Virus record (IMG/VR): IMGVR_UViG_3300030012_002778
Location: 1-56,186 of that record
DNA: 56,186 nucleotides
Direction: 5' to 3' (one strand)
Source: a virus
Lineage: Duplodnaviria; Caudoviricetes
The notes beneath the pieces were generated by a model. It saw only the letters and a list, made by a program, of their open reading frames with translations. It ran no database searches and was not told where the DNA came from. Both the position numbers and the translations under genes were made by a program. How positions within the stretch are numbered: the stretch's first letter is position 1; the number at the start of each line of letters is the position of its first letter. Shown here one piece after another: positions 35,463 through 54,689 of this stretch.

Positions 35463-35874
35463 CTTATCATGTCCTTTTTTCTCAAAAAATGTGGCGGAAT
35501 TTATTTGGGACTTGCGTTTTTAAAAAAATTATATGGTTTATATAAACAGGATAAAAAGTTGTTTCTTTAATTATTCTCCTTTAAAGTTTATAGTTGCGGC
35601 CCGTTATAGCATTGTTCGTTTAAATCGTTTTATTATATTAGCAGTATTGATTGTTTATTTGTTTAGACTGTTTAATTATTGTTTCTTATTCTAGTATAGT
35701 GGGCTAAATAGCATAAGTTGTTATTGTCACGAACATATTAGTTGCTTAGTAAAAGGCAGAACAGTCAATGATATAATAGTATGGGCAAAGTAGGCTAATA
35801 TATTAAGCAAAACTGCCTTTTTTGTTGATTTAAAACCACTCATTTAAACGAACAGTAAAATAAAAATTTTGAAA

Positions 35875-35930
35875 CAAAGCCATATGGTTGTGTAATCTTT
35901 TAGGCTATACAACCATATGGTATTGCTTTG
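35875..35930. repeat. Cassette-delimiting palindrome R1 (inverted double copy)
   Basis: caaagccatatggttgt...acaaccatatggtattgctttg. Confidence 0.85.
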
Positions 35931-35966
35931 CTATACCCTGCCTAATTAGGACTTACGGATTATGGC

Positions 35967-36677
35967 TTAAGAATGAGCCTTCTTAGCCTCCTTAACACGG
36001 TTAATGATGTCAGGAGCGCATTCGCTACGACTTGCTGTTTTAGCATCGAAATGACAACCAATAGTAGCGTTGTTGATATCATAGCCAAACTTCTTGAGTT
36101 TCAAACGACCCTCAATAGTGCTTTGAATCTTAGCCATATCGTTTAGTGTTTCATTAACCATAACTTCTTCAATAGTGTTTTTGCGCTGAATGCCTTCAGG
36201 CTCCCATGTAGTTGTAAACCTAAGAATAACACCATCAGTAGAATTTGATAGCGTAACAGCCATAGTTTGTCCACTATCATATTCTATTTTACGGTCATAC
36301 CAGTCATTTTGTTCTCCATCCAATTCAAAATCAACACGGACAATACTGCCTTGCACCATTACCCACTTCTTAGATGTCTTGTCTACTTTAGCATCAACAC
36401 AATCTATAGCCAAAAATGGGCTAAATGCATCAAAGGCTTGATTTCTATCAGTATAGTATTTAGTTTCAAATATGACCTCATTATCCATAACGATTTGATA
36501 GGTCTTTTTGGTTTCTGTTATTTCATTAAATCCATATTTAGGCTTGTTACCAAAATGAGTGCGTATGGTAATACCTTTCTTTTGCAGTTCATGTGCTAAT
36601 TTAGCAAATTGAAGGTCGTCCATCTTCTCTCCGTAATCAATCTCCATAGTTCTTACATAGGTTATATTGCTTGACAT
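35967..36677 (-). CDS. Cassette 1 hypothetical protein
   Basis: 236 aa, apparently leaderless downstream of R2. Confidence 0.8.
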   Translation of the reverse strand: MSSNITYVRTMEIDYGEKMDDLQFAKLAHELQKKGITIRTHFGNKPKYGFNEITETKKTYQIVMDNEVIFETKYYTDRNQAFDAFSPFLAIDCVDAKVDKTSKKWVMVQGSIVRVDFELDGEQNDWYDRKIEYDSGQTMAVTLSNSTDGVILRFTTTWEPEGIQRKNTIEEVMVNETLNDMAKIQSTIEGRLKLKKFGYDINNATIGCHFDAKTASRSECAPDIINRVKEAKKAHS

Positions 36678-36714
36678 ATCTATTTCTCAATTGATAGTAT
36701 TAGGGTTTTAGTTC

Positions 36715-36745
36715 CAAAGTAACTACAACCATATGGTTTGCTTTG
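36715..36745. repeat. Palindrome R2
   Basis: caaag taactaca accatatggt ttg ctttg. Confidence 0.9.
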
Positions 36746-36789
36746 CATAACCGTAACCACAAGGGCTACAGGGGGAATAAGCGTTAAAC

Positions 36790-37287
36790 CTATTCATTAG
36801 CCTCCTTATTTTTTACGGGAGGCGGAGACATTAGAGGGACATTACCCTCCATTGAACCATCCCAACGGTTTTCCTTATATCCCTTAACAAGAGCATCAAA
36901 GGCTTTTTGTCCGTATGATTCCGCTAAGTCATCAATTGTTTCATATGAGCCACCGGAGCGACCGTGAGGTAGTATGACCTTCAGAATAATATCTGCATCA
37001 GTAATACCCGCAAAGGCAGTTATAACCGCATTCTTTACAGAAGTCGCAGATAGTAGTATATCTTCTGGTAATGACGATTCTCGGCCTTTTCGAGCCATCG
37101 GGAAATCTGCAAATGTGCTACCGATACTTCTAATTGCAGTCCAATAAGTAGACCTTAAATCATCGTTATCACAAGCATTTCCTAATGCCATGGATAGAGT
37201 AATGGCTTGACCATTTTCTCCCCTGTCTTCTTTATCCAACCATAGTTGAACCTTTGCTGTGTTTATGTTCCAATTTTCTATTTTCAT
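36790..37287 (-). CDS. Cassette 2 protein, paralog family A
   Basis: LRSTYWTAIRSIGS..FP.ARKGRES..PHGRSGG shared with 38946 ORF; AGGAGGT RBS. Confidence 0.85.
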   Translation of the reverse strand: MKIENWNINTAKVQLWLDKEDRGENGQAITLSMALGNACDNDDLRSTYWTAIRSIGSTFADFPMARKGRESSLPEDILLSATSVKNAVITAFAGITDADIILKVILPHGRSGGSYETIDDLAESYGQKAFDALVKGYKENRWDGSMEGNVPLMSPPPVKNKEANE

Positions 37288-37371
37288 TTTTGTTACCTCC
37301 TAAACTAAAGTTTAACACTCAATCCCCCTGAGCAATAGATACGATACCTAATCGTATAAGGTTGGTATGTG

Positions 37372-37403
37372 CAAAGCAATCCCAACCATATGGTGTTACT
37401 TTG
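37372..37403. repeat. Palindrome R3
   Basis: caaag caatccca accatatggt gtta ctttg. Confidence 0.9.
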
Positions 37404-37410
37404 GTTAAAC

Positions 37411-37420
37411 GCCCGAAGGC
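37411..37420 (-). terminator. cUUCGg tetraloop hairpin at 3' end of cassette 3 (also 38490-38499, 38896-38905)
   Basis: Minus strand GCC-TTCG-GGC between the stop codon and the repeat. Confidence 0.5.
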
Positions 37421-37421
37421 T

Positions 37422-37772
37422 TTAGCCCCCTACAAGAGTATGGGCGTTGTAGGTTTCTGTTTCTCTATCCCAATGATAGACTTGAACTAGAATATCATAT
37501 TCTGTTAGTTCGTATAAACCAAAAACTTCTGATGCCACAATGGTCATCGCTTGACTTAATCCAGTGACAAAGATATTGATACAATTTCCATCATTCCACA
37601 TTTGTTCTAGTTTTTCGTTTGCGATTAGTCGTAGTGTCTGAAAATCATTAGGATTCTCAATAGGTTCAGTAAAAATGTAATCGGTAATACCCTCAATATC
37701 ATGGCGACCCGCACACAATCCTACATTAACTACTACTCCGCCTTCATCATCTCCAATACTTCTTGTAAACAT
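37422..37772 (-). CDS. Cassette 3 small alpha/beta protein (GLC-GRH...VTGL...YHWD)
   Basis: Start reassigned to MFTRSIG at 37772 because the longer frame runs through repeat R4. Confidence 0.75.
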   Translation of the reverse strand: MFTRSIGDDEGGVVVNVGLCAGRHDIEGITDYIFTEPIENPNDFQTLRLIANEKLEQMWNDGNCINIFVTGLSQAMTIVASEVFGLYELTEYDILVQVYHWDRETETYNAHTLVGG

Positions 37773-37810
37773 GGTAAATGAATCAAATTCATTATGTAAG
37801 GTATGTTTAA

Positions 37811-37840
37811 CAAAGCACCATACCATATGGTTGTTCTTTG
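37811..37840. repeat. Palindrome R4 (opposite orientation to most copies)
   Basis: caaag caccat accatatggt tgtt ctttg; the CAACCATATGGT asymmetry reads on the minus strand. Confidence 0.9.
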
Positions 37841-37844
37841 AAGA

Positions 37845-38415
37845 ACCCCATGAAAGGGCTACACAGTAGCAGGGAACAATCATTATTGTAATTTTAATTT
37901 TTATTGATATACCTGTATAGCGTTTTTCATGGTGAACTATTATCGCTTTATCTATCGCTTAAGCACCAAATGAGTATGATAGAAACTTCGCCTACTCCAT
38001 ACATATCCGATTAACTGCACTTCTTCTTGATTTCCCTACAGTTTGCCATGGCTTACTGTATTGTTTACCCGTCTGTCTTACTACGCTGTGTTTCGGCTCG
38101 TTTCTATATGGTTTATGGCCAATCCGCCATATGGAATAAAAGGTGGGATAGTGGAGTGACTACCACTAATGATGATACGATTGGGTCGCATTCACTTTAG
38201 ACGCTCTTATATCTTAAGAGCCATCAAGCCAAGTATATCCAAGTTGTTAGTTAGGCAACTCCCCTTTTGAGGTTCAAGGATTTTTCATAGAGCCAATGAC
38301 CTCACGCTTTTACGCATCACCCATTGGATATGTCGCACTACACGAATACCTGCACATTACCCCCCGCCTAAAGGGGTATTCTGTCAATCCCTGTCGGTTC
38401 ATGACTCCCGACATA
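37845..38415. ncRNA. Candidate structured non-coding RNA occupying cassette 4
   Basis: No credible ORF between R4 and R5; many hairpins (38037-38060, 38149-38167, 38203-38221, 38242-38260, 38358-38378, 38392-38413) and long-range 38001-38010/38324-38333 pairing. Confidence 0.5.
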
Positions 38416-38450
38416 AAATATCATGAGATTCTGTATATGGTTTTAGATAC

Positions 38451-38482
38451 CAAAGATATCACAACCATATGGTATTGCTTTG
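38451..38482. repeat. Palindrome R5
   Basis: caaag atatcaca accatatggt attg ctttg. Confidence 0.9.
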
Positions 38483-38524
38483 TAATAATGCCCGAAGGCT
38501 TTCATGGTGTCTTTTCCTCCATAT

Positions 38525-38812
38525 TTATTCCTCCTCCTCGTATTCGTTAAATTCTGCCATGAACTTAATCATGTATTCCTCGAATATGTGCCAATTCATT
38601 ATTTTGTCTATGGTTTGGCCGACATGCTTTTGCTCAATTTCAATATTTAGAGGTGTTCCGATGACTTGATGATATGTGGTGTATATATCGCCATAATAGA
38701 TAGGAAGCATACTCTCAACATATTCGACGATATAATCATCATCATCATACTGTGCCTTGTATTCGATTACTTCATGTTCCCAATTAATATTATAATAGTT
38801 ATAATTTGACAT
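38525..38812 (-). CDS. Ocr (T7 gp0.3)-like acidic DNA-mimic protein
   Basis: DYIVEYVESMLPIYYGDIY resembles Ocr DAIHMAADNAVPHYYADIF; IDKIMNWHIFEE resembles VIRILQARIYEQ; acidic tail EYEEEE. Confidence 0.65.
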   Translation of the reverse strand: MSNYNYYNINWEHEVIEYKAQYDDDDYIVEYVESMLPIYYGDIYTTYHQVIGTPLNIEIEQKHVGQTIDKIMNWHIFEEYMIKFMAEFNEYEEEE

Positions 38813-38851
38813 GGTAAGCCCTTTTTGACCCTGTATTAACTAGGGTCGAAA

Positions 38852-38879
38852 CAAAGCACAACCATATGGTATTGCTTTG
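38852..38879. repeat. Palindrome R6
   Basis: caaag caca accatatggt attg ctttg. Confidence 0.9.
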
Positions 38880-38945
38880 TTATACCCCAATTAAACCCCG
38901 AAGGGAGTAATATGGGGCTACAACGGGAATAGTTGCAGTTTAGGC

Positions 38946-39473
38946 TCAAACCTCTTCCGAGTCCTCCATTTGAGCATCTTTCTCGGCCTTTGTAGGGCGA
39001 GGGGTGATTTGAGGGACACCCGCCTTATTCAACTTACCATCGAATCGGCCTTCTTTGATAGAAGCGACCATGTAGTTATGTGCTTGATTAACATAGTAAG
39101 CAGTCATTTCGTCCATTGATGAATAAACTCCGCCAGTTCGCCCGTGAGGAACTATTACGGCCAGTAGTGTTGCGTGGTATTCAGTAGGGATTGAAGCAAA
39201 GGCAGTTTCTACCACACTCTCCACATTGGCCAATGCAATCTGTTGTTCCTCGGTTAGAGTTGATTCTCGGCCTTTGCGGGCTGATGGAAAACCATCCATA
39301 GTAGAACCAATTGAACGAATTGCTGTCCAATATGTGCTTCTTAATTCGTCAGTAGCGGCATTGTCACCTAACGATAGGGACAGTAAAACCGCACTCAGGT
39401 TATCAGACTTAGGTTGCTTTTCAGCCCAAGCCCTCACTTTACTTGTATTTACATTCCAATTTGCTTGTTTCAT
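38946..39473 (-). CDS. Cassette 6 protein, paralog family A
   Basis: Start reassigned to MKQANWNVNT at 39473 (AGGAGGT RBS). Confidence 0.85.
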   Translation of the reverse strand: MKQANWNVNTSKVRAWAEKQPKSDNLSAVLLSLSLGDNAATDELRSTYWTAIRSIGSTMDGFPSARKGRESTLTEEQQIALANVESVVETAFASIPTEYHATLLAVIVPHGRTGGVYSSMDEMTAYYVNQAHNYMVASIKEGRFDGKLNKAGVPQITPRPTKAEKDAQMEDSEEV

Positions 39474-39550
39474 ATTTTTTACCTCCTTGTTTGCTCCTAT
39501 TCCCGTTGAAGCACTAGATGGAATCTGATGTCGTATTAGTATGGTTTTTA

Positions 39551-39578
39551 CAAAGTGCAACCATATGGTAACGCTTTG
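39551..39578. repeat. Palindrome R7
   Basis: caaag tgca accatatggt aacg ctttg. Confidence 0.9.
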
Positions 39579-39684
39579 TTATAACCCAATGCGGGGATTG
39601 TTTTTTATTTCGGCTATTTGCATATTTACCCTATGCGTGGCTCCTTTACCTAAGCGAAAACAATCAAAAACGCTTTCCACAGTA

Positions 39685-39984
39685 TCAACAATCTAACAGA
39701 ATGGGTAAACCATCCCAGTAGACACCGTTCAAATACCATGCAAAATTTCTTTGCACTATATTGACACCATCCAAACCGTTAAGGCGTTCTTTTGTGGTGT
39801 TGGTATCCCATCCCATGGTCATAATTGTAACATTACCGTTTGAATCCTTCTCAGCAATCAAATTGTTATGCAGATACATAGAAGTCGAACCGTCACAGGT
39901 AAAATGACGGACTACAGTATTACCTCTACTAAAATTTCTGTTATTATTGAATGCGTGAACTGCGTCTTGGGTTATTTTTCTCAT
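39685..39984 (-). CDS. Cassette 7 conserved-type phage hypothetical protein
   Basis: MRKITQDA..F...NT.V...LHNNLIA...GWDTNTTKERLN; start at 39984. Confidence 0.75.
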   Translation of the reverse strand: MRKITQDAVHAFNNNRNFSRGNTVVRHFTCDGSTSMYLHNNLIAEKDSNGNVTIMTMGWDTNTTKERLNGLDGVNIVQRNFAWYLNGVYWDGLPILLDC

Positions 39985-40023
39985 GTTATAGATTAAATGA
40001 CCCATTACTTAGGGTTGTTTCAA

Positions 40024-40054
40024 CAAAGCATCACAACCATATGGTGTTGCTTTG
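40024..40054. repeat. Palindrome R8
   Basis: caaag catcaca accatatggt gttg ctttg. Confidence 0.9.
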
Positions 40055-40092
40055 TTTGCACCTTATCTAATAAGATAATAAATAGGTTTAGC

Positions 40093-40335
40093 ATGTCAAA
40101 AGCAGCAGTTAAGAGAGTATCAAGCATTAGCCCATCAATGAAAAAAGAAGTCCAAACATCTATAGATTCGGCCATATTTACAGATATCAGTATTTTTACT
40201 GATGAACCCGATGCTATGATTGGCCTTATCACCATGGAGGCTATTTATGCAGGTATTGATAACGCTGTCAAATTTACACTTATGCATGATATGTTAAGTG
40301 ATGTCATGGAGGAGTTATTTAACGCTCTTGATTAA
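40093..40335 (+). CDS. Cassette 8 acidic small protein (opposite strand to other cassettes)
   Basis: MSKAAVKRV...; CCTTATCTAA TATA-like box just after R8, about 25 nt before the ATG. Confidence 0.6.
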   Translation: MSKAAVKRVSSISPSMKKEVQTSIDSAIFTDISIFTDEPDAMIGLITMEAIYAGIDNAVKFTLMHDMLSDVMEELFNALD

Positions 40336-40460
40336 ATCACCTCGTCGGGTCTGGTGTTCTTATTGGTATAATCTTCTATCATTAAGGCCACTTAAGTTTG
40401 AGGTAGTGCGACGGCACTTTTATGGGGCAGAAATCCCCAACTACCGACACATGGTTAAAA

Positions 40461-40480
40461 CAAAGCGCAACCATATGGTA
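40461..40480. repeat. Palindrome R9 (right arm missing)
   Basis: caaag cgca accatatggt a, with no ctttg. Confidence 0.8.
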
Positions 40481-40599
40481 AGATAGGTCATAAGAGAGCA
40501 AGCATTTGTTATTTACATTATAAACATATGACAACTTTTAGTCTAAGATTTTCTACCCTCCCTGTCTAAACATTACCTTGGGTGCTTCTCAATTGAACT

Positions 40600-40995
40600 T
40601 ATATCTATATTAATAGAATATCTATATGTTATATGATATATAATATAGTATAATGTCCGATAGTTCTCATCGGGTTTCGCAAGTGAGAAGAGAAATATCT
40701 CTAAAAAAATGACCTAGTTATAGGTATAAGTAAGATATTTTTACAATACTTCTCATTATTCTCATTTCTCTTTCTCTTCTTCTTCTTTCTCTCTCTCTTG
40801 TATTACATAAATATAAGTCATACAAAATTACCCTACTTATCTATGTGAGGAGAATAATATATATTGATAAGAGTCATGAGAAATGAGAATAATGAGAAGA
40901 GTTAGCATAACTAGGTCATTTTAGATAGGGTTGTCGGTATAACTAGGTCATAATTATTTCTCATCAGAAAACGAGAACTATTATGAGAACTATTA
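40600..40995. other. Nested inverted-repeat, AT-rich region; candidate replication origin or terminus
   Basis: IRs 40660-40670/40983-40993, 40706-40721/40907-40922, 40749-40770/40878-40899; many TGAGAA/TTCTCA units; located at the gene strand switch. Confidence 0.55.
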
Positions 40996-41090
40996 ATGCA
41001 CATTCCTGTAACCATCCACGATAATGTCAATGACTAAACTAATAGATTAATAAAAGTTATGAGTGAAAATGGGGCTTAGTGCTTCTATGT

Positions 41091-41455: not shown

Positions 41456-41917
41456 ATGGATGACACAACATGGAATAGTTTGAAGATAGAAATTGAAGAA
41501 TATCTAAGTGCTGATGAAGGCTTAGACGAAGGACTAAAGCAAGTCTGTTTGCTTAATTTAAGTATTGGTGACACAAATCCCAATGAAAGAGAAGCCTGTC
41601 GGGGCGCACTTAAAGCACTACTAAGAGGTCGTGATGGAACTCCTTTCAAGAAAGGCCAAAAGTCATCAATACCTGCTTCAGTTAGAGTAGTTATTGACAA
41701 GATAGTTTCTACGGTTGAAGAAGCATCAACAACTTATTTTAATCAAGACCCAATAATTGGTGCTATTACCAAAAAGCAGAACAGAAGCGGTGGGGGGCTT
41801 TATGCCAACGCAGAAGAATATGCGAAGGCTGAAGGTGTCCGAGCAAGAAACCGTTTGGCTAAATGGTATAAGAACCAAGAATGGGACGGAAATTACGATT
41901 CACTTCTTTCTGTTTAA
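41456..41917 (+). CDS. Divergent member of paralog family A
   Basis: LSIGD, PFKKGQKSS, RSGGGLY, EWDG align with the 36790 and 38946 proteins. Confidence 0.75.
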   Translation: MDDTTWNSLKIEIEEYLSADEGLDEGLKQVCLLNLSIGDTNPNEREACRGALKALLRGRDGTPFKKGQKSSIPASVRVVIDKIVSTVEEASTTYFNQDPIIGAITKKQNRSGGGLYANAEEYAKAEGVRARNRLAKWYKNQEWDGNYDSLLSV

Positions 41918-42711: not shown

Positions 42712-42723
42712 GGAGGTTATGCT

Positions 42724-42775
42724 TCTATAGAAACGAAGATTGACCCCCCATGGGCGACCTATATAGGGTAGGCGA
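42724..42775 (+). promoter_or_regulatory. ~52-bp repeated regulatory element, copy 1
   Basis: TCTATAGAAA..TTGACCCCC.ATGGG...CTATATAGGGTAGG(G)CGA, repeated at 46931-46983. Confidence 0.65.
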
Positions 42776-43063
42776 CCCTCCCTATTGTCTTGACAGTGAT
42801 ACACGCCTCGCCTCCTTCAATTAAATGAGGCAGTATTATTTTGTTGAGACAAATATGGGGGAGTCGAGTCAAGGGGCTACACAAATGAGATGCGACTAAC
42901 AATCGCTGACTCCTCCCCCACCTTTCATATTCACAATTCGGAAAATTTTCTAAAAAAGCACGAAAATTTTCCTGACTATTTAGTATTTCACACGCATTAC
43001 CGTTGCTTTAATTAGCAATCTAAGCGTTTTCTTAGTCCATTAAAAGACAAAAGAGGTTTAAAC

Positions 43064-46715: not shown

Positions 46716-46930
46716 TATTACAAACAAGACACGGTAGAGCAATACCTCTTGTAAAAATAGAGTTTTCTAACGGGCAAATGGAAATCGTATTAGAGTTGAT
46801 TGACGAATGATATGTCAAATATGCTTTAACAAAGGATGGCACTTAGTTCCTAACTATGAATTAGAAACTATGGAACTAGAACAGTGTTTGGACTGTTTAG
46901 CCAAAGAACGAGATAAAAATACCAATTAAC

Positions 46931-46983
46931 TCTATAGAAAAACACCTTGACCCCCGATGGGGATACTATATAGGGTAGGGCGA
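46931..46983 (+). promoter_or_regulatory. ~52-bp repeated regulatory element, copy 2
   Basis: Near-identical to 42724-42775; TATA-like CTATATAG upstream of the next gene. Confidence 0.65.
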
Positions 46984-49909: not shown

Positions 49910-51076
49910 ATGAAATTAAAAATAAGAAAACCAGATGACAGTAGCGAATACTATTCTACAGAAATAACCTGCACACAAGCATACACTTATGGAGACGAAA
50001 CAGTTGTTGGACTAGATAGAAGTGCCAAAGACCCTATTCATAGTGGGTTAGTTAGTTTTTGGAGAGGATGCCTTTCCTCTAAAAATCGTAATAGAGGATA
50101 TTTCTATATGCCGACTTCTTCTGATTATAATACAGTAATTATGGTGGGTAGTTGTCCCGTTGCTTTAGAAAAAAGAAATAATAGATTTTATGTTAATGGT
50201 AAAGCAGAAAGCCTATCTACTATTTGCCATGCCTTAGCGAGAGTAACATACAAGTCTTGTTTTGAAAAAGATGCCTCTAAGTTATTATTGGGGCTTTACA
50301 ATACCTTGGCCATTCCTGAAAATGTAAAGTATGTTCTAGAAAATAGACTACCATTTTCTTTTCATGAATATGAAACTAAATACGAAGTAAGACTACCCGT
50401 TCAAATGATAGGAACCGATGAAGTCGCTATAGAAATAGCAGATGGTGTTTGGGGAACTATGTCTGTAAAAACACTAGACAAACTATGTGTGTTTCTTGTA
50501 GAAGGCAAGAAAAGAAGTAAGTTAAAATTTATTTCTCCTAGAAAACTATATTCTATGACGATGGGTAGAGAACCATTAGATTCTGAACTCAAAGTTATGA
50601 TAGAGTTTCTTAAACAAAATAGAATGCAAGATTTAGTTGAAAGACGAGCAATACAATTAGTTAATGATTTATTAGCACAACACCCTGACAGGCTTAAAGC
50701 AGAATACGATGAAGATACCCTACATCGTTTATATGTTCGTGGTAAAGAACATGATTGGATGTTAGAAAATAATAGATATAAATCAGATATTCAAATGGTT
50801 TCTACTTATATTTGGCAACCAGTTGTTTCCTTTGAAAAGATTCTCAACGATGAAGGAGAACCAACGGGCGAAGAAATCAAGATAGTAGATAATCCTAAAT
50901 GGCAAGGGCCAATATGTATAGATAACATGGCTAAAGGTTCTCCATTAGGCGACCAATTTGCCGCTAGAGCATTGGCTCTACTAAATGATACTTTTACAAT
51001 AACAATAGTGAATACAATAAAGCGGTATATTACCGCTAATGCCAATGAATATAGAGTTGATTTTAATGAAATGTAA
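49910..51076 (+). CDS. Hypothetical protein in Ubl cluster; candidate E2-like/conjugation factor
   Basis: C-terminal LYVRG...GPICIDN...GDQFAARALALLND with an exposed-looking Cys; function inferred from context only. Confidence 0.4.
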   Translation: MKLKIRKPDDSSEYYSTEITCTQAYTYGDETVVGLDRSAKDPIHSGLVSFWRGCLSSKNRNRGYFYMPTSSDYNTVIMVGSCPVALEKRNNRFYVNGKAESLSTICHALARVTYKSCFEKDASKLLLGLYNTLAIPENVKYVLENRLPFSFHEYETKYEVRLPVQMIGTDEVAIEIADGVWGTMSVKTLDKLCVFLVEGKKRSKLKFISPRKLYSMTMGREPLDSELKVMIEFLKQNRMQDLVERRAIQLVNDLLAQHPDRLKAEYDEDTLHRLYVRGKEHDWMLENNRYKSDIQMVSTYIWQPVVSFEKILNDEGEPTGEEIKIVDNPKWQGPICIDNMAKGSPLGDQFAARALALLNDTFTITIVNTIKRYITANANEYRVDFNEM

Positions 51077-51920
51077 AGAATGCGGTTCAACAGAAATAAC
51101 CTTTGACGAGAGGTTAGGAGAGAAGTGTTGTGCAGAATGCGGCTTAGTTATTATAACGGGTATGTTTGAAGAAACAGTTAATCCTATAGAAAGAGGAGAT
51201 AACTATTCTCTAAAGCATAGTGCTGACAAAGGAAGATTAGGTTCTCTAGTAGTGGGTAAAGGTGCATCTAAATATAATAGGCATAATCCAGTATTGCCTA
51301 GAAATGTTATCAACGGTATTACTCATTGTAACATGGTTATGGCTAATCTAAGACTACCAATTAATCTTGCAGAAAGAATACAGAAAGCATACTTAGAATT
51401 ATACAATAGCCATACTCTTAGGAACTTTACTTTAGAAGAAAGAGCGACTGCTATAGTTTACTATCTTCTAAAAGAAAACAGAACCCCTCATCCTCTCAAA
51501 GATGTTGCGAAAGAATTTGATGTTAAACTAAATAGAACTAAAAAACTAATTAGAAAAATAAATCAGTTTTATCGTAACTCTATACATTATTCTATAGATG
51601 ATAGTTCCTATCTTATTGAGCAAACGGCTAGAAAAATAACCGATGAACCGCAATTTGTTTATCAGTGTAATAAAGTAATGCAGAAGTTTGAGACGCTAAT
51701 AGTAAATAGTAACTTCAATAAGTCTAGATGTTATTATGCGGCCATATGTGTATTAGCCTCTACCATATTTGTTAGAGGATATTCTTGTAAGTTCATATCT
51801 GAACAAACAGGATTTCATAGAACTAAGATAGGTAAAGAATGTAAGAACTTACTTACATTATTAGGTGTAGAATCTTTAAAAGATATTAAAGGAAAAGAAT
51901 TGAATAAATTAGGTGAATAA
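51066..51920 (+). CDS. tfb: Transcription initiation factor IIB (TFB)-like protein
   Basis: N-terminal Zn ribbon CKECGS...GEKCCAECGLVI; two cyclin-fold repeats (ATAIVYY...RTPHPLKDVA; YYAAICVLA). Confidence 0.85.
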   Translation: MKCKECGSTEITFDERLGEKCCAECGLVIITGMFEETVNPIERGDNYSLKHSADKGRLGSLVVGKGASKYNRHNPVLPRNVINGITHCNMVMANLRLPINLAERIQKAYLELYNSHTLRNFTLEERATAIVYYLLKENRTPHPLKDVAKEFDVKLNRTKKLIRKINQFYRNSIHYSIDDSSYLIEQTARKITDEPQFVYQCNKVMQKFETLIVNSNFNKSRCYYAAICVLASTIFVRGYSCKFISEQTGFHRTKIGKECKNLLTLLGVESLKDIKGKELNKLGE

Positions 51921-52485
51921 AATGAAAAGAAAAATATTAGTAATTGGAGCAGGTGGAATAGGGAGTTTTCTTATTCCTGTATTAGATAGAGTAGGTTTGT
52001 ATGATATTACAGTAGCCGACCCTGATAAGGTAGAAACAAAGAATCTACCATATCAAAACTTTAGCAAAGAGGCAGTCAGTGTAAATAAGGCTAAATGGCA
52101 AGAAGTTTCTTATGATTCTGTTAAAAATTATAGTGCATATCCTATTCTTAGTGAAAAACAAATGCAAGGATATGACTTGGTTATTTGTTGTGTAGATAAT
52201 ATCGGACTAAGAAGAACTATGTATAACTGTAAAGATTTGAAATGGTTAGATTTGAGAGCGCAAGGCCGTAATGCGGCTATGGTATCTTATACTGCTGACC
52301 CTAAAATGTATGATACATTGTTAGCAGGTGAAGAAAGGTCATTTAGTTGTCAGGGCGATTCATGGGATGGCTCAAATAAAGGAGTTCATTTCATGCAAGT
52401 TGCTATTGCAGGAATGGGCGCACAATGGATTCAGCGTTGGTTTAACGATGAAGAAGTTTGTGATTTTAAGGTGGTGAATGTATGA
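51913..52485 (+). CDS. ThiF/E1-like ubiquitin-activating enzyme (minimal)
   Basis: IGAGGIG, DPDKVETKNL..Q, DLVICCVDN, DLR, SCQ. Confidence 0.85.
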   Translation: MNKMKRKILVIGAGGIGSFLIPVLDRVGLYDITVADPDKVETKNLPYQNFSKEAVSVNKAKWQEVSYDSVKNYSAYPILSEKQMQGYDLVICCVDNIGLRRTMYNCKDLKWLDLRAQGRNAAMVSYTADPKMYDTLLAGEERSFSCQGDSWDGSNKGVHFMQVAIAGMGAQWIQRWFNDEEVCDFKVVNV

Positions 52486-53058: not shown

Positions 53059-54060
53059 ATGGTAAAATGGACGAGAGAACAGGAAATATATGCATTAAGA
53101 AGTAAAAGAAAGGGATATTCAATCAACAAAATATCAAAGTTGATGAAAAAAAGATATGGTGTAAATAGAAAGTATCATTCTATTTACACTAAGATAAACA
53201 AACTTGAGAAAAAGAATACTATCATTCCCAAAGTAAAAAGTTATATGAAACATGCTAAATACACACAGGAACAAATAGATTTTGTTCATCTTTGTAAGTT
53301 TAATGGTATGCCTCTTGCTAGAATTAGTTTAGCCTTTTACGAACAATTTGGTATTGAAGTTAATCTAAGGCAGATTAATTATTTATTTTATCGTAAGGTT
53401 CCCGCAGATGAAAGGCTGTTTTCTAATGCTCCTGCTATTCAAAAAGAATTAGCACAAGGAAAACTACTACAGGAATTAGAAAAGCCAACAAAGAAACCAA
53501 AAACAAAAGCACCAAAGAGATACACTAAGAAGGAAATAGCCTTGATTAGTAGTTGTAAGAGTGCTAAAGATGCGGAAAAACTTTCTAGTATACTTAAAAG
53601 AAGCAAGGATGCTTTAAATCGTCAGTGGTATTATATCAAGGAGAAAGAAACTATGAGCCAAGACTGGGAAACAAAATCTAAGAAAAAGGCGAAGCCAACG
53701 GTAAAGAAAAACATTCAATCTGTGCAAGAAGAATGGAATAAATTTAAAGACTTAGATTTGTTAATTAATTTCTATGACCTTTCCATAGATGAGGCTAAAG
53801 CACGATATGGATTTTCATATGAAATAATAGCGGGGAGGTTAGAACATTTAATAAACTCAAATAACCCCGACAATATTGCCCTAGTTATAGAAGCCACTAG
53901 AGCCGTCAATGAGCGTAAGTCACAACAGCCTACTGAAACAAAACCAAGCCGCAGACAACTAAGGAAAGAGCGAAAGATGGCAAAGAAAGAAGCAAGGCAG
54001 AAGAAAAGAATCGAAAGAATGGAAAAGAGACTAAAGAAATTAAGAGGTGAAAAGAAATGA
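53059..54060 (+). CDS. Myb/HTH-repeat DNA-binding protein
   Basis: Repeated W/Y-T-x-E-[QE] starts (KWTREQE, KYTQEQI, RYTKKEI); very basic. Confidence 0.6.
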   Translation: MVKWTREQEIYALRSKRKGYSINKISKLMKKRYGVNRKYHSIYTKINKLEKKNTIIPKVKSYMKHAKYTQEQIDFVHLCKFNGMPLARISLAFYEQFGIEVNLRQINYLFYRKVPADERLFSNAPAIQKELAQGKLLQELEKPTKKPKTKAPKRYTKKEIALISSCKSAKDAEKLSSILKRSKDALNRQWYYIKEKETMSQDWETKSKKKAKPTVKKNIQSVQEEWNKFKDLDLLINFYDLSIDEAKARYGFSYEIIAGRLEHLINSNNPDNIALVIEATRAVNERKSQQPTETKPSRRQLRKERKMAKKEARQKKRIERMEKRLKKLRGEKK

Positions 54061-54689
54061 GTAGAACAGGAGATTGGTTTATGAGAGTTCATGGCGACCA
54101 TGACGATGATGATGGCTATAATGAATTTGAGGAACAATCCGAATTAGATTATTGGAGAGAAAGGGCTGAACAGCATATTTTGGAGAAATGGTTTCATAAT
54201 GCTAATTTAGAGTTAGAATCAGTTAATCATCATAATGATTGGGAAATGACTTGGGAAGACCGAGATAAATTTGATTTTGCATATGCTAGAAGTGAAGATT
54301 TCTTTAGTGCTATTTGGCATGCTTCTACAGAAATATTGCCGGGTCTTGAGGTTCAAGTGGTAATTGACGGTAAGAATAACTGTTATGTTACAACTGGTTC
54401 TCCGGGCTATGTAGAGTTTGGAATGCAACCTCCTATTGGTATGAGTTTACCGATTAAGTGTTGGATTCATACTCATCCATTTGGTAGTGCTTATTTTAGT
54501 GGTGTAGATATTAAAACAGTAAGTCAGTGGCAACCTCTAATGAAAGAGGCTTTTGTTTTAGGTGGTTGGGAATATCAACACTACGGTTGGTGGCAACAAG
54601 CCAAACCAAAACAATTAGCAATCTACCGTAATGGTCAATTAGAAAGAATGCAATATTGGGGTCAAGAGTCGGAGAGTGAAGAAGAGTGA
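54057..54689 (+). CDS. JAB/MPN+ metalloprotease (deubiquitinase-like)
   Basis: E...WIHTHPFGSAYFSGVD, the JAMM motif. Confidence 0.88.
   Translation: MSRTGDWFMRVHGDHDDDDGYNEFEEQSELDYWRERAEQHILEKWFHNANLELESVNHHNDWEMTWEDRDKFDFAYARSEDFFSAIWHASTEILPGLEVQVVIDGKNNCYVTTGSPGYVEFGMQPPIGMSLPIKCWIHTHPFGSAYFSGVDIKTVSQWQPLMKEAFVLGGWEYQHYGWWQQAKPKQLAIYRNGQLERMQYWGQESESEEE

Follow-up and report, generated by a model that had tools for sequence, protein, structure and literature searches.

Two described systems come closest to a cassette array that we analyzed in a 56,186-bp tailed-virus record from IMG/VR (IMGVR_UViG_3300030012_002778; Duplodnaviria, Caudoviricetes), hereafter the window, meaning the whole stretch of DNA under study. 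The first consists of the promoter-early stem-loop (PeSL) cassettes of T4-like phages, which are described as composite modules of up to ~100 bp that combine a promoter with stem-loops and are repeated between the small ORFans of a hyperplastic region. Each PeSL cassette has its own promoter, the modules delimit the indels and replacements seen among close relatives, and the likeness to integrons was already pointed out by the authors (Arbiol et al. 2010, PMC2839356; Comeau et al. 2014, PMC4122927). The second consists of the conserved early regulatory sequences, or "anti-defence regulons," of Sulfolobales viruses, described as many small, unrelated, and mostly single genes under one sequence that spans the B recognition element (BRE) and TATA box; SMV2 has inverted repeats that overlap its BRE (Bhoobalan-Chitty et al. 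2024, PMC11065993). The array in the window has eight single-unit cassettes delimited by nine sites (R1 to R9) that share the palindromic core ACCATATGGT. These sites are probably co-regulated composite promoter modules that also supply homology for cassette shuffling, an archaeal-virus counterpart of PeSLs.

Module-bounded indels and replacements among ORFans were found here, as in PeSL regions, and only one cassette protein, Kyano_Gp96, has a family match. The differences are in the promoter, which here is archaeal (BRE/TATA, many leaderless genes) whereas that of PeSLs is described as sigma-70; in the module, which here has dyad symmetry about a 10-bp palindrome and can face both ways, as at R8; in the layout, since all copies here lie in one array beside a divergent control region whereas PeSLs are reported from several regions; and in the stem, which here overlaps the BRE and covaries. 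The Sulfolobales-virus regulon belongs to another virus group and host phylum and has another motif, while the array in the window is tight; PMC11065993 mentions neither shuffling at the motifs nor the word "recombination." Terminator function and mini-circles are published features of PeSLs, and early timing, an Aca-like regulator, and anti-defence are published features of the Sulfolobales-virus regulon. What is new is PeSL logic on an archaeal promoter, in a module that is dyad-symmetric, partly two-faced, confined to a single array, and equipped with a BRE-overlapping covarying stem.

An earlier sequence-only reading of the window had instead described an integron- or shufflon-like architecture. 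The likeness to integrons lies in single-gene cassettes between imperfect palindromic repeats, with varying content and order. No integrase or attI was found here, however, and the cassettes carry their own BRE/TATA, whereas integron cassettes are promoterless and share one common promoter. In contrast to shufflons, the units are whole genes, none of the five complete relatives has an Rci/Hin-type enzyme, and inversions were seen only between distant genomes.

Genes for a terminase, a portal, and a major capsid protein lie on the minus strand of the window, which CheckV rates 59% complete; the plus strand carries a gene for an SF1/UvrD helicase, and the gene clusters switch strand near 40.5 kb. 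An open reading frame (ORF) at 51039–51920 matches the TFIIB zinc ribbon with 32.4 bits against a Pfam cut-off of 29, and weakly matches TFIIB/TFB chains in the PDB (E 1e-3). This TFB homologue is found in all five complete relatives, which have genomes of 94–97 kb. The profile of Aoguangviridae by the ICTV, the international committee for virus taxonomy, gives genomes of 90–100 kb, two divergent gene clusters, an SF1 helicase, and a TFB, and states that aoguangvirids have no identifiable integrase or transposase. A tailed-virus structural module, the TFB, the SF1 helicase, relatives in the 90–100 kb range, and two divergent clusters were all found here. Because the TFB homologue, the helicase, and the divergent clusters agree with this profile, the virus resembles a magrovirus-like tailed virus of marine archaea, with the host deduced from gene content. 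The suggestion of an archaeal virus, made before any database search, is thereby borne out. The best phage match of the terminase is to a Bacteroides phage, at 27% identity.

Repeat module and promoter geometry

Nine exact copies of ACCATATGGT and a near-copy, GCCATATGGT, at 35879 lie within 35879–40479 and nowhere else in the window, as the sequence-only reading had stated. At up to one mismatch there are 12 matches against 1.35 expected (sd 1.10, maximum 5; 0 of 100 shuffles reach 12), and the remaining two one-mismatch matches (2424 and 43971) are at chance level. The CAAAG start was confirmed at each of the nine proposed sites. The proposed interval length of 370–790 bp was wrong, since the spacing between CAAAG starts is 401–840 bp, but each interval does hold one unit. 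Six genes and an ORF-free segment make up the seven minus-strand units, and the eighth unit is on the plus strand. Minus-strand units follow a fixed order that begins with the end of the preceding gene and a hairpin and continues with CAAAG, ~4 bases, ACCATATGGT, 3–9 bases, and CTTTG. The gene is reached after a short stretch with ACC at its end, a single base, and a TATA-like box. The expected TATA-like boxes are present after R2 to R8 on the minus strand, and the three predicted cUUCGg-type hairpins lie ahead of R3, R5, and R6 (GCCUUCGGGC twice and CCCUUCGGGG once, minus strand).

At R2 (36696–36745, minus strand), the CAAAG-core-CTTTG site at 36715–36745 is followed by the right stem and the box ACC-C-TAATAC, with the CC ending at 36704. 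The same arrangement recurs on the minus strand at R3 (37352–37403; site 37372–37403; stem GGTTGG/CCAACC; box ACC-T-TATACG, CC end 37360), R4 (37792–37840; site 37811–37840; box ACC-T-TACATA, CC end 37800), R5 (38431–38482; site 38451–38482; box ACC-A-TATACA, CC end 38439), R6 (38833–38879; site 38852–38879; box ACC-C-TAGTTAATAC, CC end 38844), and R7 (39533–39578; site 39551–39578; box ACC-ATAC-TAATAC, CC end 39543). R4 had been read as inverted. This holds for the bases flanking its core, which are compensated by the partner arm (GGTATG/CATACC), but its promoter has the same orientation as at the other sites. R8 (40005–40069, site 40024–40054) is two-faced, with a minus-facing box ACC-C-TAAGTA (CC end 40013) and a plus-facing box ACC-T-TATCTA (CC end 40062). 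The plus face serves the ORF at 40093–40335, which places cassette 8 on the opposite strand, as proposed.

Both terminal sites are atypical, again in line with the sequence-only reading. R1 (35850–35930, minus strand) is doubled (cores at 35879 and 35912): its core at 35912–35921, with CAAAG upstream, is followed by a stem and a second core-like box at 35879–35888, which occupies the place taken by the TATA box at the other sites. CTTTG and a T-rich tract come next and likely mark the end of the array. The terminal form CCATATGGCTTTGTTTCA of R1 is kept in 9 of 26 arrays. R9 (40461–40479, minus strand) is a half site that lacks one arm, with CTTTG only downstream of the core on that strand, and it adjoins the first TAGGTCAT repeat of an AT-rich control region.

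The sample for promoter geometry was 190 non-identical sites, taken from the window and from 84 loci retrieved by motif, and is therefore motif-selected. A CC plus TATA-like anchor was present at 80 of the 190, and 62 of these 80 have an ATG-initiated ORF of at least 50 aa within 140 nucleotides (nt). The distance from CC to ATG peaks at 27–29 nt (20 of 62; 26–32 nt in 26 of 62). A second class at 70–82 nt has GGAGG-type Shine-Dalgarno (SD) leaders, and a few genes near 40 nt have GGTG. In the window, the distance is 27 nt for F9, 28 for F17, 29 for F7, 31 for the plus-strand ORF at R8, and 32 for the 95-aa gene, and position 1 of the manA RNA model lies 26 nt past the CC of R5. This spacing puts the TATA box at about −26 to −23 and the ACC arm in the BRE position, with leaderless messages, which is standard archaeal geometry. 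Bacterial promoter readings (sigma-70, the Bacteroidetes −33/−7 type, and a MotA-box-like geometry), considered after the Bacteroides phage match of the terminase, were dropped in view of the TFB homologue and the 27–29 nt leaderless spacing.

RNA was examined as contigs from four marine metatranscriptome runs of one study (X1 and X2 are the same sample), compared over 35500–41000. Contigs cover the manA RNA (37982–38392, at a depth of up to ~600), F1a (38966–39512), and F1b (36866–37333, as a relative's allele), and a low-depth contig of a relative covers 40249–40427 in cassette 8. Contig ends fall 27 nt past the CC of R3 (37333, X4) and 31 nt past the CC of R7 (39512, X1 and X2). No contig crosses a site, and bins at sites have zero depth beside units with depths of 20 to ~600. 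The units lacking contigs (F9, F17, the 95-aa gene, and F7) are uninformative on expression. Together, the geometry and the contig ends support every site as the upstream part of an archaeal-type promoter heading a transcription unit. A regulatory element had been the simpler alternative of the sequence-only reading, and it gains support here, with the operator role remaining a conjecture.

The palindrome itself resembles the promoter boxes. The first seven bases of ACCATATGG are those of the R5 promoter box ACCATATAC; because of this and of the second core of R1 in the place of a TATA box, the palindrome can be read as two back-to-back copies of ACC-N-TATA. R8, with a box on either face, serves genes on both strands, and TATA-like boxes flank many sites on both sides in more distant relatives. 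It is speculative that TBP/TFB or the viral TFB homologue binds the core. A literature search returned nothing on promoters or gene regulation in magroviruses, and Philosof 2017 and Xu 2023 do not mention a promoter, palindrome, repeat, or TFB.

Cassette shuffling among relatives

The pattern CAACCATATGGTNNNNCTTTG matches 79 IMG/VR stretches. The five complete relatives have seven to nine cores each in a single stretch of 3.1–4.1 kb, and in all 21 further near-complete relatives every AACCATATGGT match falls in one stretch of at most 4.7 kb. The resulting 26 arrays hold 150 cassettes, which form 16 families and 36 singletons. Family C1 (F1) has 35 cassettes in 22 genomes, C2 (F9) occurs in 13 genomes, and C3 (manA RNA) occurs in 11. 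Cassette order is unlike between nearly all of the 26 arrays. Distant arrays were oriented by a heuristic, and only the relative orientation within an array is meaningful; this too varies, as for C9/C5 (+,− in L091 but +,+ in L099 and L100) and C2/C1 (+,+ in the window but +,− in L109), and L093 has two opposed C1 cassettes.

Breakpoints between closer genomes fall at the modules. The closest relative of the window is L090, with a TFB 97% identical. The cassette of the 95-aa gene (38465–38862) is missing from L090 exactly core to core, leaving a hybrid site. Compared with L088, the window has the same cassettes in another order, and both ends of each matching blastn segment lie within ~10–20 bp of a core. 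Two neighboring cassettes are swapped between L091 and L092 (ORF families and blastn, six arrays). Order, content, and relative orientation thus vary over the 26 relatives with breakpoints at the repeats, which agrees with the modular, exchangeable platform suggested by the sequence-only reading and departs from the identical gene order that it had named as evidence for a plain operator.

Cassettes also differ in their identity to those of L090. Nucleotide identity between the window and L090 is 96.6% for F1a, 96.3% for F1b, 88.5% for manA, and 82.5% for F9, and falls to 77% for C6, 66.6% for F17, and 62% for F7. F17 of the window is 81% identical to the allele of L096, although the F1 cassettes of L096 are only 64%–65% identical to those of the window. 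In 30-column windows, identity to L090 is 0.90–1.00 over the 3' part of manA and the R4 core, 0.80 at the R4 promoter, and 0.33–0.77 from ~37768 to 37426, and returns to 1.00 at R3. Judged from these alignments, the F17 allele has been replaced, and the exchanged stretch runs between a site and the promoter/ATG border. Crossovers of PeSL mini-circles are described with a similar placement (PMC2839356).

No gene for an IntI-type tyrosine recombinase was found in the window. None of the five complete relatives matches the tyrosine recombinase family PF00589, which was matched by all 14 control genomes, nor the serine (PF00239) or Y1-HUH (PF01797) families, for which controls also matched. The attC-like hairpin in which the CAAAG and CTTTG arms pair, another suggestion of the sequence-only reading, shows no covariation: the three pairs inside the arms give 213 of 564 in Watson-Crick pairs against 207 ± 10 in shuffles. 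With none of these recombinase families in five of five complete relatives, a promoter of its own for each cassette, and no arm-arm covariation, the integron- or shufflon-like site-specific mechanism is not supported.

In the account that we favor instead, a magrovirus-like virus carries a hyperplastic block of transcription units that each work autonomously. Each unit is headed by one module of ~60–90 bp, with a dyad-symmetric CAAAG-N4-ACCATATGGT-N3-11-CTTTG framed by two short inverted repeats and the archaeal core promoter directly next to it, consisting of the BRE-like arm ending in ACC, one base, and the TATA box. Transcription would start ~27–31 nt past the CC, so that many cassette genes would be leaderless; others, such as the F1 family, have a leader with a Shine-Dalgarno sequence, and the manA motif begins at the predicted start site. 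The shared palindrome would most likely let one factor switch the whole set together, and the position of the array beside the divergent control region suggests early timing. The same module flanking every unit would offer homology to the general recombination of the virus. Cassettes are lost and gained, give way to foreign alleles, change places, and at times turn around, each taking its own promoter along. What the data show is the motif, the geometry of the promoters, a conserved array, and shuffling whose breakpoints fall at the modules. We infer homologous exchange over ~30–60 bp of shared module rather than a site-specific reaction because of the missing recombinase in the five relatives, the ICTV statement, and the PeSL precedent.

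Covarying stems and alternative explanations

The modules contain stems that the sequence-only reading had not described in this form. GGT and one to eight further bases after the core are complementary to the bases ending in ACC ahead of the TATA box, with CTTTG in the loop. R4 (GGTATG/CATACC) and R3 (GGTTGG/CCAACC) illustrate this, and such stems reach 11 bp in relatives. The 3' arm of this right stem ends in CC just ahead of the TATA box, where the BRE is. Shared ancestry of the sites inflates all permutation tests on the stems, which gave the following values. Arms pair over 5.29 bp with their own partners and 3.81 bp with swapped partners, and 0 of 2,000 permutations were as high (42 sites, six genomes). 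With an anchor independent of pairing, positions 4–7 have 214 Watson-Crick pairs against 139 ± 6.4 (80 sites). When 62 non-redundant sites were aligned with MAFFT, pairing was found in 85.8% of cells, compared with 71.9% when shuffled (0 of 500), and 57 cells are changed on both sides against 20.4 expected, with slid controls at 37%–51%. A mirror stem opposite the core, with CAAAG in its loop, has 3.92 against 3.22 bp (0 of 1,000). RNAfold predicts two flanking hairpins at R2 to R5 and one long central hairpin at R6 to R8; folding z-scores are −1.0 to −2.2 for five of seven window sites, −6.7 for R6, and −3.2 for R8. An excess of G-U over A-C (50 versus 13 on the right, 4 versus 53 on the left) was considered as a sign of strand-specific folding and rejected, as it is confounded by the conserved core-adjacent arm and is gone deeper in the stem. 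Candidate roles for the stems are terminators or insulators, a cruciform that hides the BRE, and by-products of template switching.

Several points weigh against promoter modules that double as recombination homology. A plain promoter plus operator does not account for the covarying stems, and the variable distance of CTTTG from the core and the TATA box fits a simple symmetric operator poorly. The RNA data are contig ends rather than mapped starts and represent just three of the eight units; the R3 contig comes from a relative with 11 differences, and the manA contigs stop 47–48 nt past the CC instead of 26–31. No DNA-binding family scored above the Pfam cut-off among 20 small ORFs or 9 further ORFs that could have supplied the common factor. 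The case for homologous recombination consists of the missing recombinase and the PeSL precedent, and the recombinase search covered five genomes and three Pfam families, through which an unrecognized enzyme could have passed. The host, finally, is assigned from gene content.

Among the alternatives, the one that survives best, though still doubtful, is a role of the stems at the RNA level, where they would terminate transcripts coming in from the neighboring unit, insulate against them, or protect their 3' ends, which would make the module a promoter-terminator composite in the strict PeSL sense. The covariation applies equally to it, the stems on either side of the center each lead into AUAU or UAUA, a half site plus a T-rich tract closes the array, and separate GC-rich UUCG hairpins lie upstream of window sites. 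PeSL stem-loops are reported to be effective terminators (PMC2839356). In the metatranscriptome, however, no RNA contig reaches a stem, as the empty site bins illustrate, and the G-U/A-C excess is explicable by the conserved core-adjacent arm. There is also no U-tract after the stems, while archaeal termination is mostly U-tract driven.

It is unlikely that the extended stems are functionless and that template switching between the conserved GGT...ACC triplets lengthened the inverted repeats. Stems always extend inward from the conserved GG/CC pair, over 2 to 12 bp, and yeast is described as having template switching by which inverted repeats near promoters expand (PMC13100816). Against it, the excess pairing extends across 62 non-redundant sites, many genomes, and both sides of the core, which is much to ask of a rare unselected event.

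We give still less weight to the module as a dedicated structure-forming DNA element, a dyad of hairpin-capable repeats with BRE outer arms around a palindrome of two back-to-back ACC-N-TATA copies. It would be a two-faced promoter that can be moved as a unit, and its folding, or its recognition by the viral TFB homologue, would both time expression and mark exchange sites. If true, the module would be to an archaeal virus what attC sites are to integrons, with transcription-factor sites as its building material. Slightly further down the scale of improbability is a structural switch confined to expression, in which the BRE-armed inverted repeat extrudes as a hairpin or cruciform, depending on supercoiling or single-strandedness, hides or exposes the BRE/TATA, and times the array. 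Covariation of the right stem (85.8 versus 71.9%; 214 versus 139 ± 6.4), a 3' arm that ends in CC before the TATA box, the mirror stem on the other side, and abundant RNA that does not cover the stems are all compatible with such a switch. Extrusion would have to be read from the sequence, however; the stems are short (a mean of 5.2 Watson-Crick bp over 190 sites), the z-scores of most window sites are modest, and we know of no precedent for a structure-switch promoter in archaea, although no search for one was made.

Least credible, and in our judgment very improbable, is an integron- or shufflon-like platform with a dedicated, unrecognized virus or host recombinase that acts on folded or double-stranded sites: gain, loss, reordering, and inversion of cassettes exactly at the sites, the palindromes and covarying stems that are a hallmark of structure-dependent sites, and a nearly invariant core with variable flanks speak for it, but the three recombinase families are absent from the five relatives, the ICTV profile has no integrase or transposase, the large arm-pairing hairpin does not covary, every cassette has its own promoter, and one of the F17 breakpoints lies ~60 nt off the core, at the promoter/ATG border, as in homologous exchange.

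Cassette contents, neighboring sequences, and significance

The seven minus-strand cassettes begin with F9 (family C2; 35967–36677), an ORFan of 236 aa with its ATG 27 nt past the CC of the R2 promoter and no PDB fold match at E ≤ 0.001 (AlphaFold2 model; predicted local distance difference test [pLDDT] score 69). F1b (family C1; 36790–37287) encodes 165 aa behind an SD-bearing 5' leader and is a paralogue of F1a and of a plus-strand ORF at 41456–41917. F17 (family C7; 37422–37772) encodes 116 aa from an ATG at 37772. The 95-aa gene (family C11; 38525–38812) lies in the cassette that is missing from L090. F1a (family C1; 38946–39473) encodes 175 aa from an ATG at 39473, also with an SD leader. 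F7 (family C4; 39685–39984; likely ATG at 39984) matches Kyano_Gp96 (PF23790) with 63.8 bits against a cut-off of 27. Cassette 8 (family C6; 40093–40335, plus strand) encodes 80 aa from an ATG 31 nt past the plus-face CC of R8. Kyano_Gp96 / phrog_554 is the sole family matched by the cassette proteins in Pfam and PHROGs, and PADLOC returned no family for 10 proteins tested. The anti-defence or host-takeover role that the sequence-only reading proposed for these genes is conjectural.

The seventh minus-strand unit is the ORF-free cassette (37982–38413, in an ORF-free segment of 37900–38450), which holds a probable manA-class structured RNA. The Rfam match at 38140–38413 covers the whole model (RF01745, positions 1–192) with 46 bits (E 1e-9), below the gathering score of 55.2 and with large insertions. 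No Rfam model matched at gathering level anywhere in the window, while the copy in L109 exceeds the threshold (62.5 bits) and other relatives have 53.3, 48.3, and 41.9 bits. Weinberg et al. (2010, PMC2864571) described the manA motif on the basis of marine metagenomes, cyanophages of the T4-like kind, and two gamma-proteobacteria. As published, those RNAs lie in the 5' untranslated region of a bacterial or cyanophage gene; here the RNA is a separate transcription unit of an archaeal virus. A G/C-rich stretch at 42850–42930 ends in ...CTCCTCCCCCACCTTTC, resembling the 3' end of manA (UCCCACCUU). It lies upstream of the helicase gene and has no Rfam match at gathering level, but another structured RNA may be encoded there.

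The F1 family (motifs LRSTYWTAIRSIGS and PHGRTGG) is represented by three paralogues in each of the six genomes compared. Two of them sit in the array as cassettes whose 5' leader is conserved, whereas the third (41456–41917, plus strand, in the window) is outside the array. The array pair is among the few units represented in the metatranscriptome contigs. A role of F1 as the regulator was considered and rejected: its six-helix model (pLDDT 77) had no PDB match (best E 1.1), and a protein atlas gave no usable match.

Between the cassette 8 ORF and R9, a hairpin-rich stretch at 40340–40440 (GGGG-CAGAAAT-CCCC nested in GGTAGT...ACTACC) is kept in L088 and L090 and could be a 3' structure of the ORF or a minus-strand small RNA. 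Beyond R9, positions 40480–41000 form an AT-rich, gene-free stretch that separates the two divergent gene clusters. It has four copies of (A)CTAGGTCAT / TAGGTCAT (~40484, 40704 reversed, 40910, and 40942) and a CT-rich tract at 40745–40800, and looks like a replication origin with iterons. A second intergenic motif on the plus strand, CTATAGAAA-N7-8-TTGACCCCC-N-ATGGG (42720–42790 and 46930–46970), precedes the helicase block and the ORF at 46957 and may be another promoter class; after it, a palindrome, ACCTATATAGGGT, lies at 42757–42769.

No tRNA was found in the 56,186 bp of the window. In three relatives, a tRNA gene lies ~1.5 kb past the array end (L091, 7909–7992; L092, 7510–7593; L097, 7627–7710; Rfam, 56–60 bits). 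The TFB homologue of relative G001 (C1:19380–20252) has one in-frame TGA inside an otherwise full-length match, which could mean a sequencing error, a broken gene, or recoding. Near the TFB homologue of the window, a ThiF/E1-like protein (53.5 bits) and a weak, below cut-off Prok-JAB match (16.2 bits), at 51913–52485 and 54057–54689, hint at a ubiquitin-like modification module of the virus.

Magroviruses (Magrovirales, viruses of Poseidoniales) are abundant but uncultured, and their hosts belong to an archaeal group that is among the most common in the surface ocean. For these viruses the array offers a concrete promoter model (a BRE ending in ...ACC, a TATA box at about −26, and leaderless starts) and a candidate regulon of accessory genes and RNAs. 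The cassette pool holds a cyanophage-type Kyano_Gp96 and a probable manA-class RNA, until now tied to bacteria and phages, and the motif could be used to extract a pool of accessory, possibly anti-defence, genes from metagenomes. If homology carried by promoters drives cassette exchange here as in PeSLs, it may be a general route by which large viruses trial genes safely.

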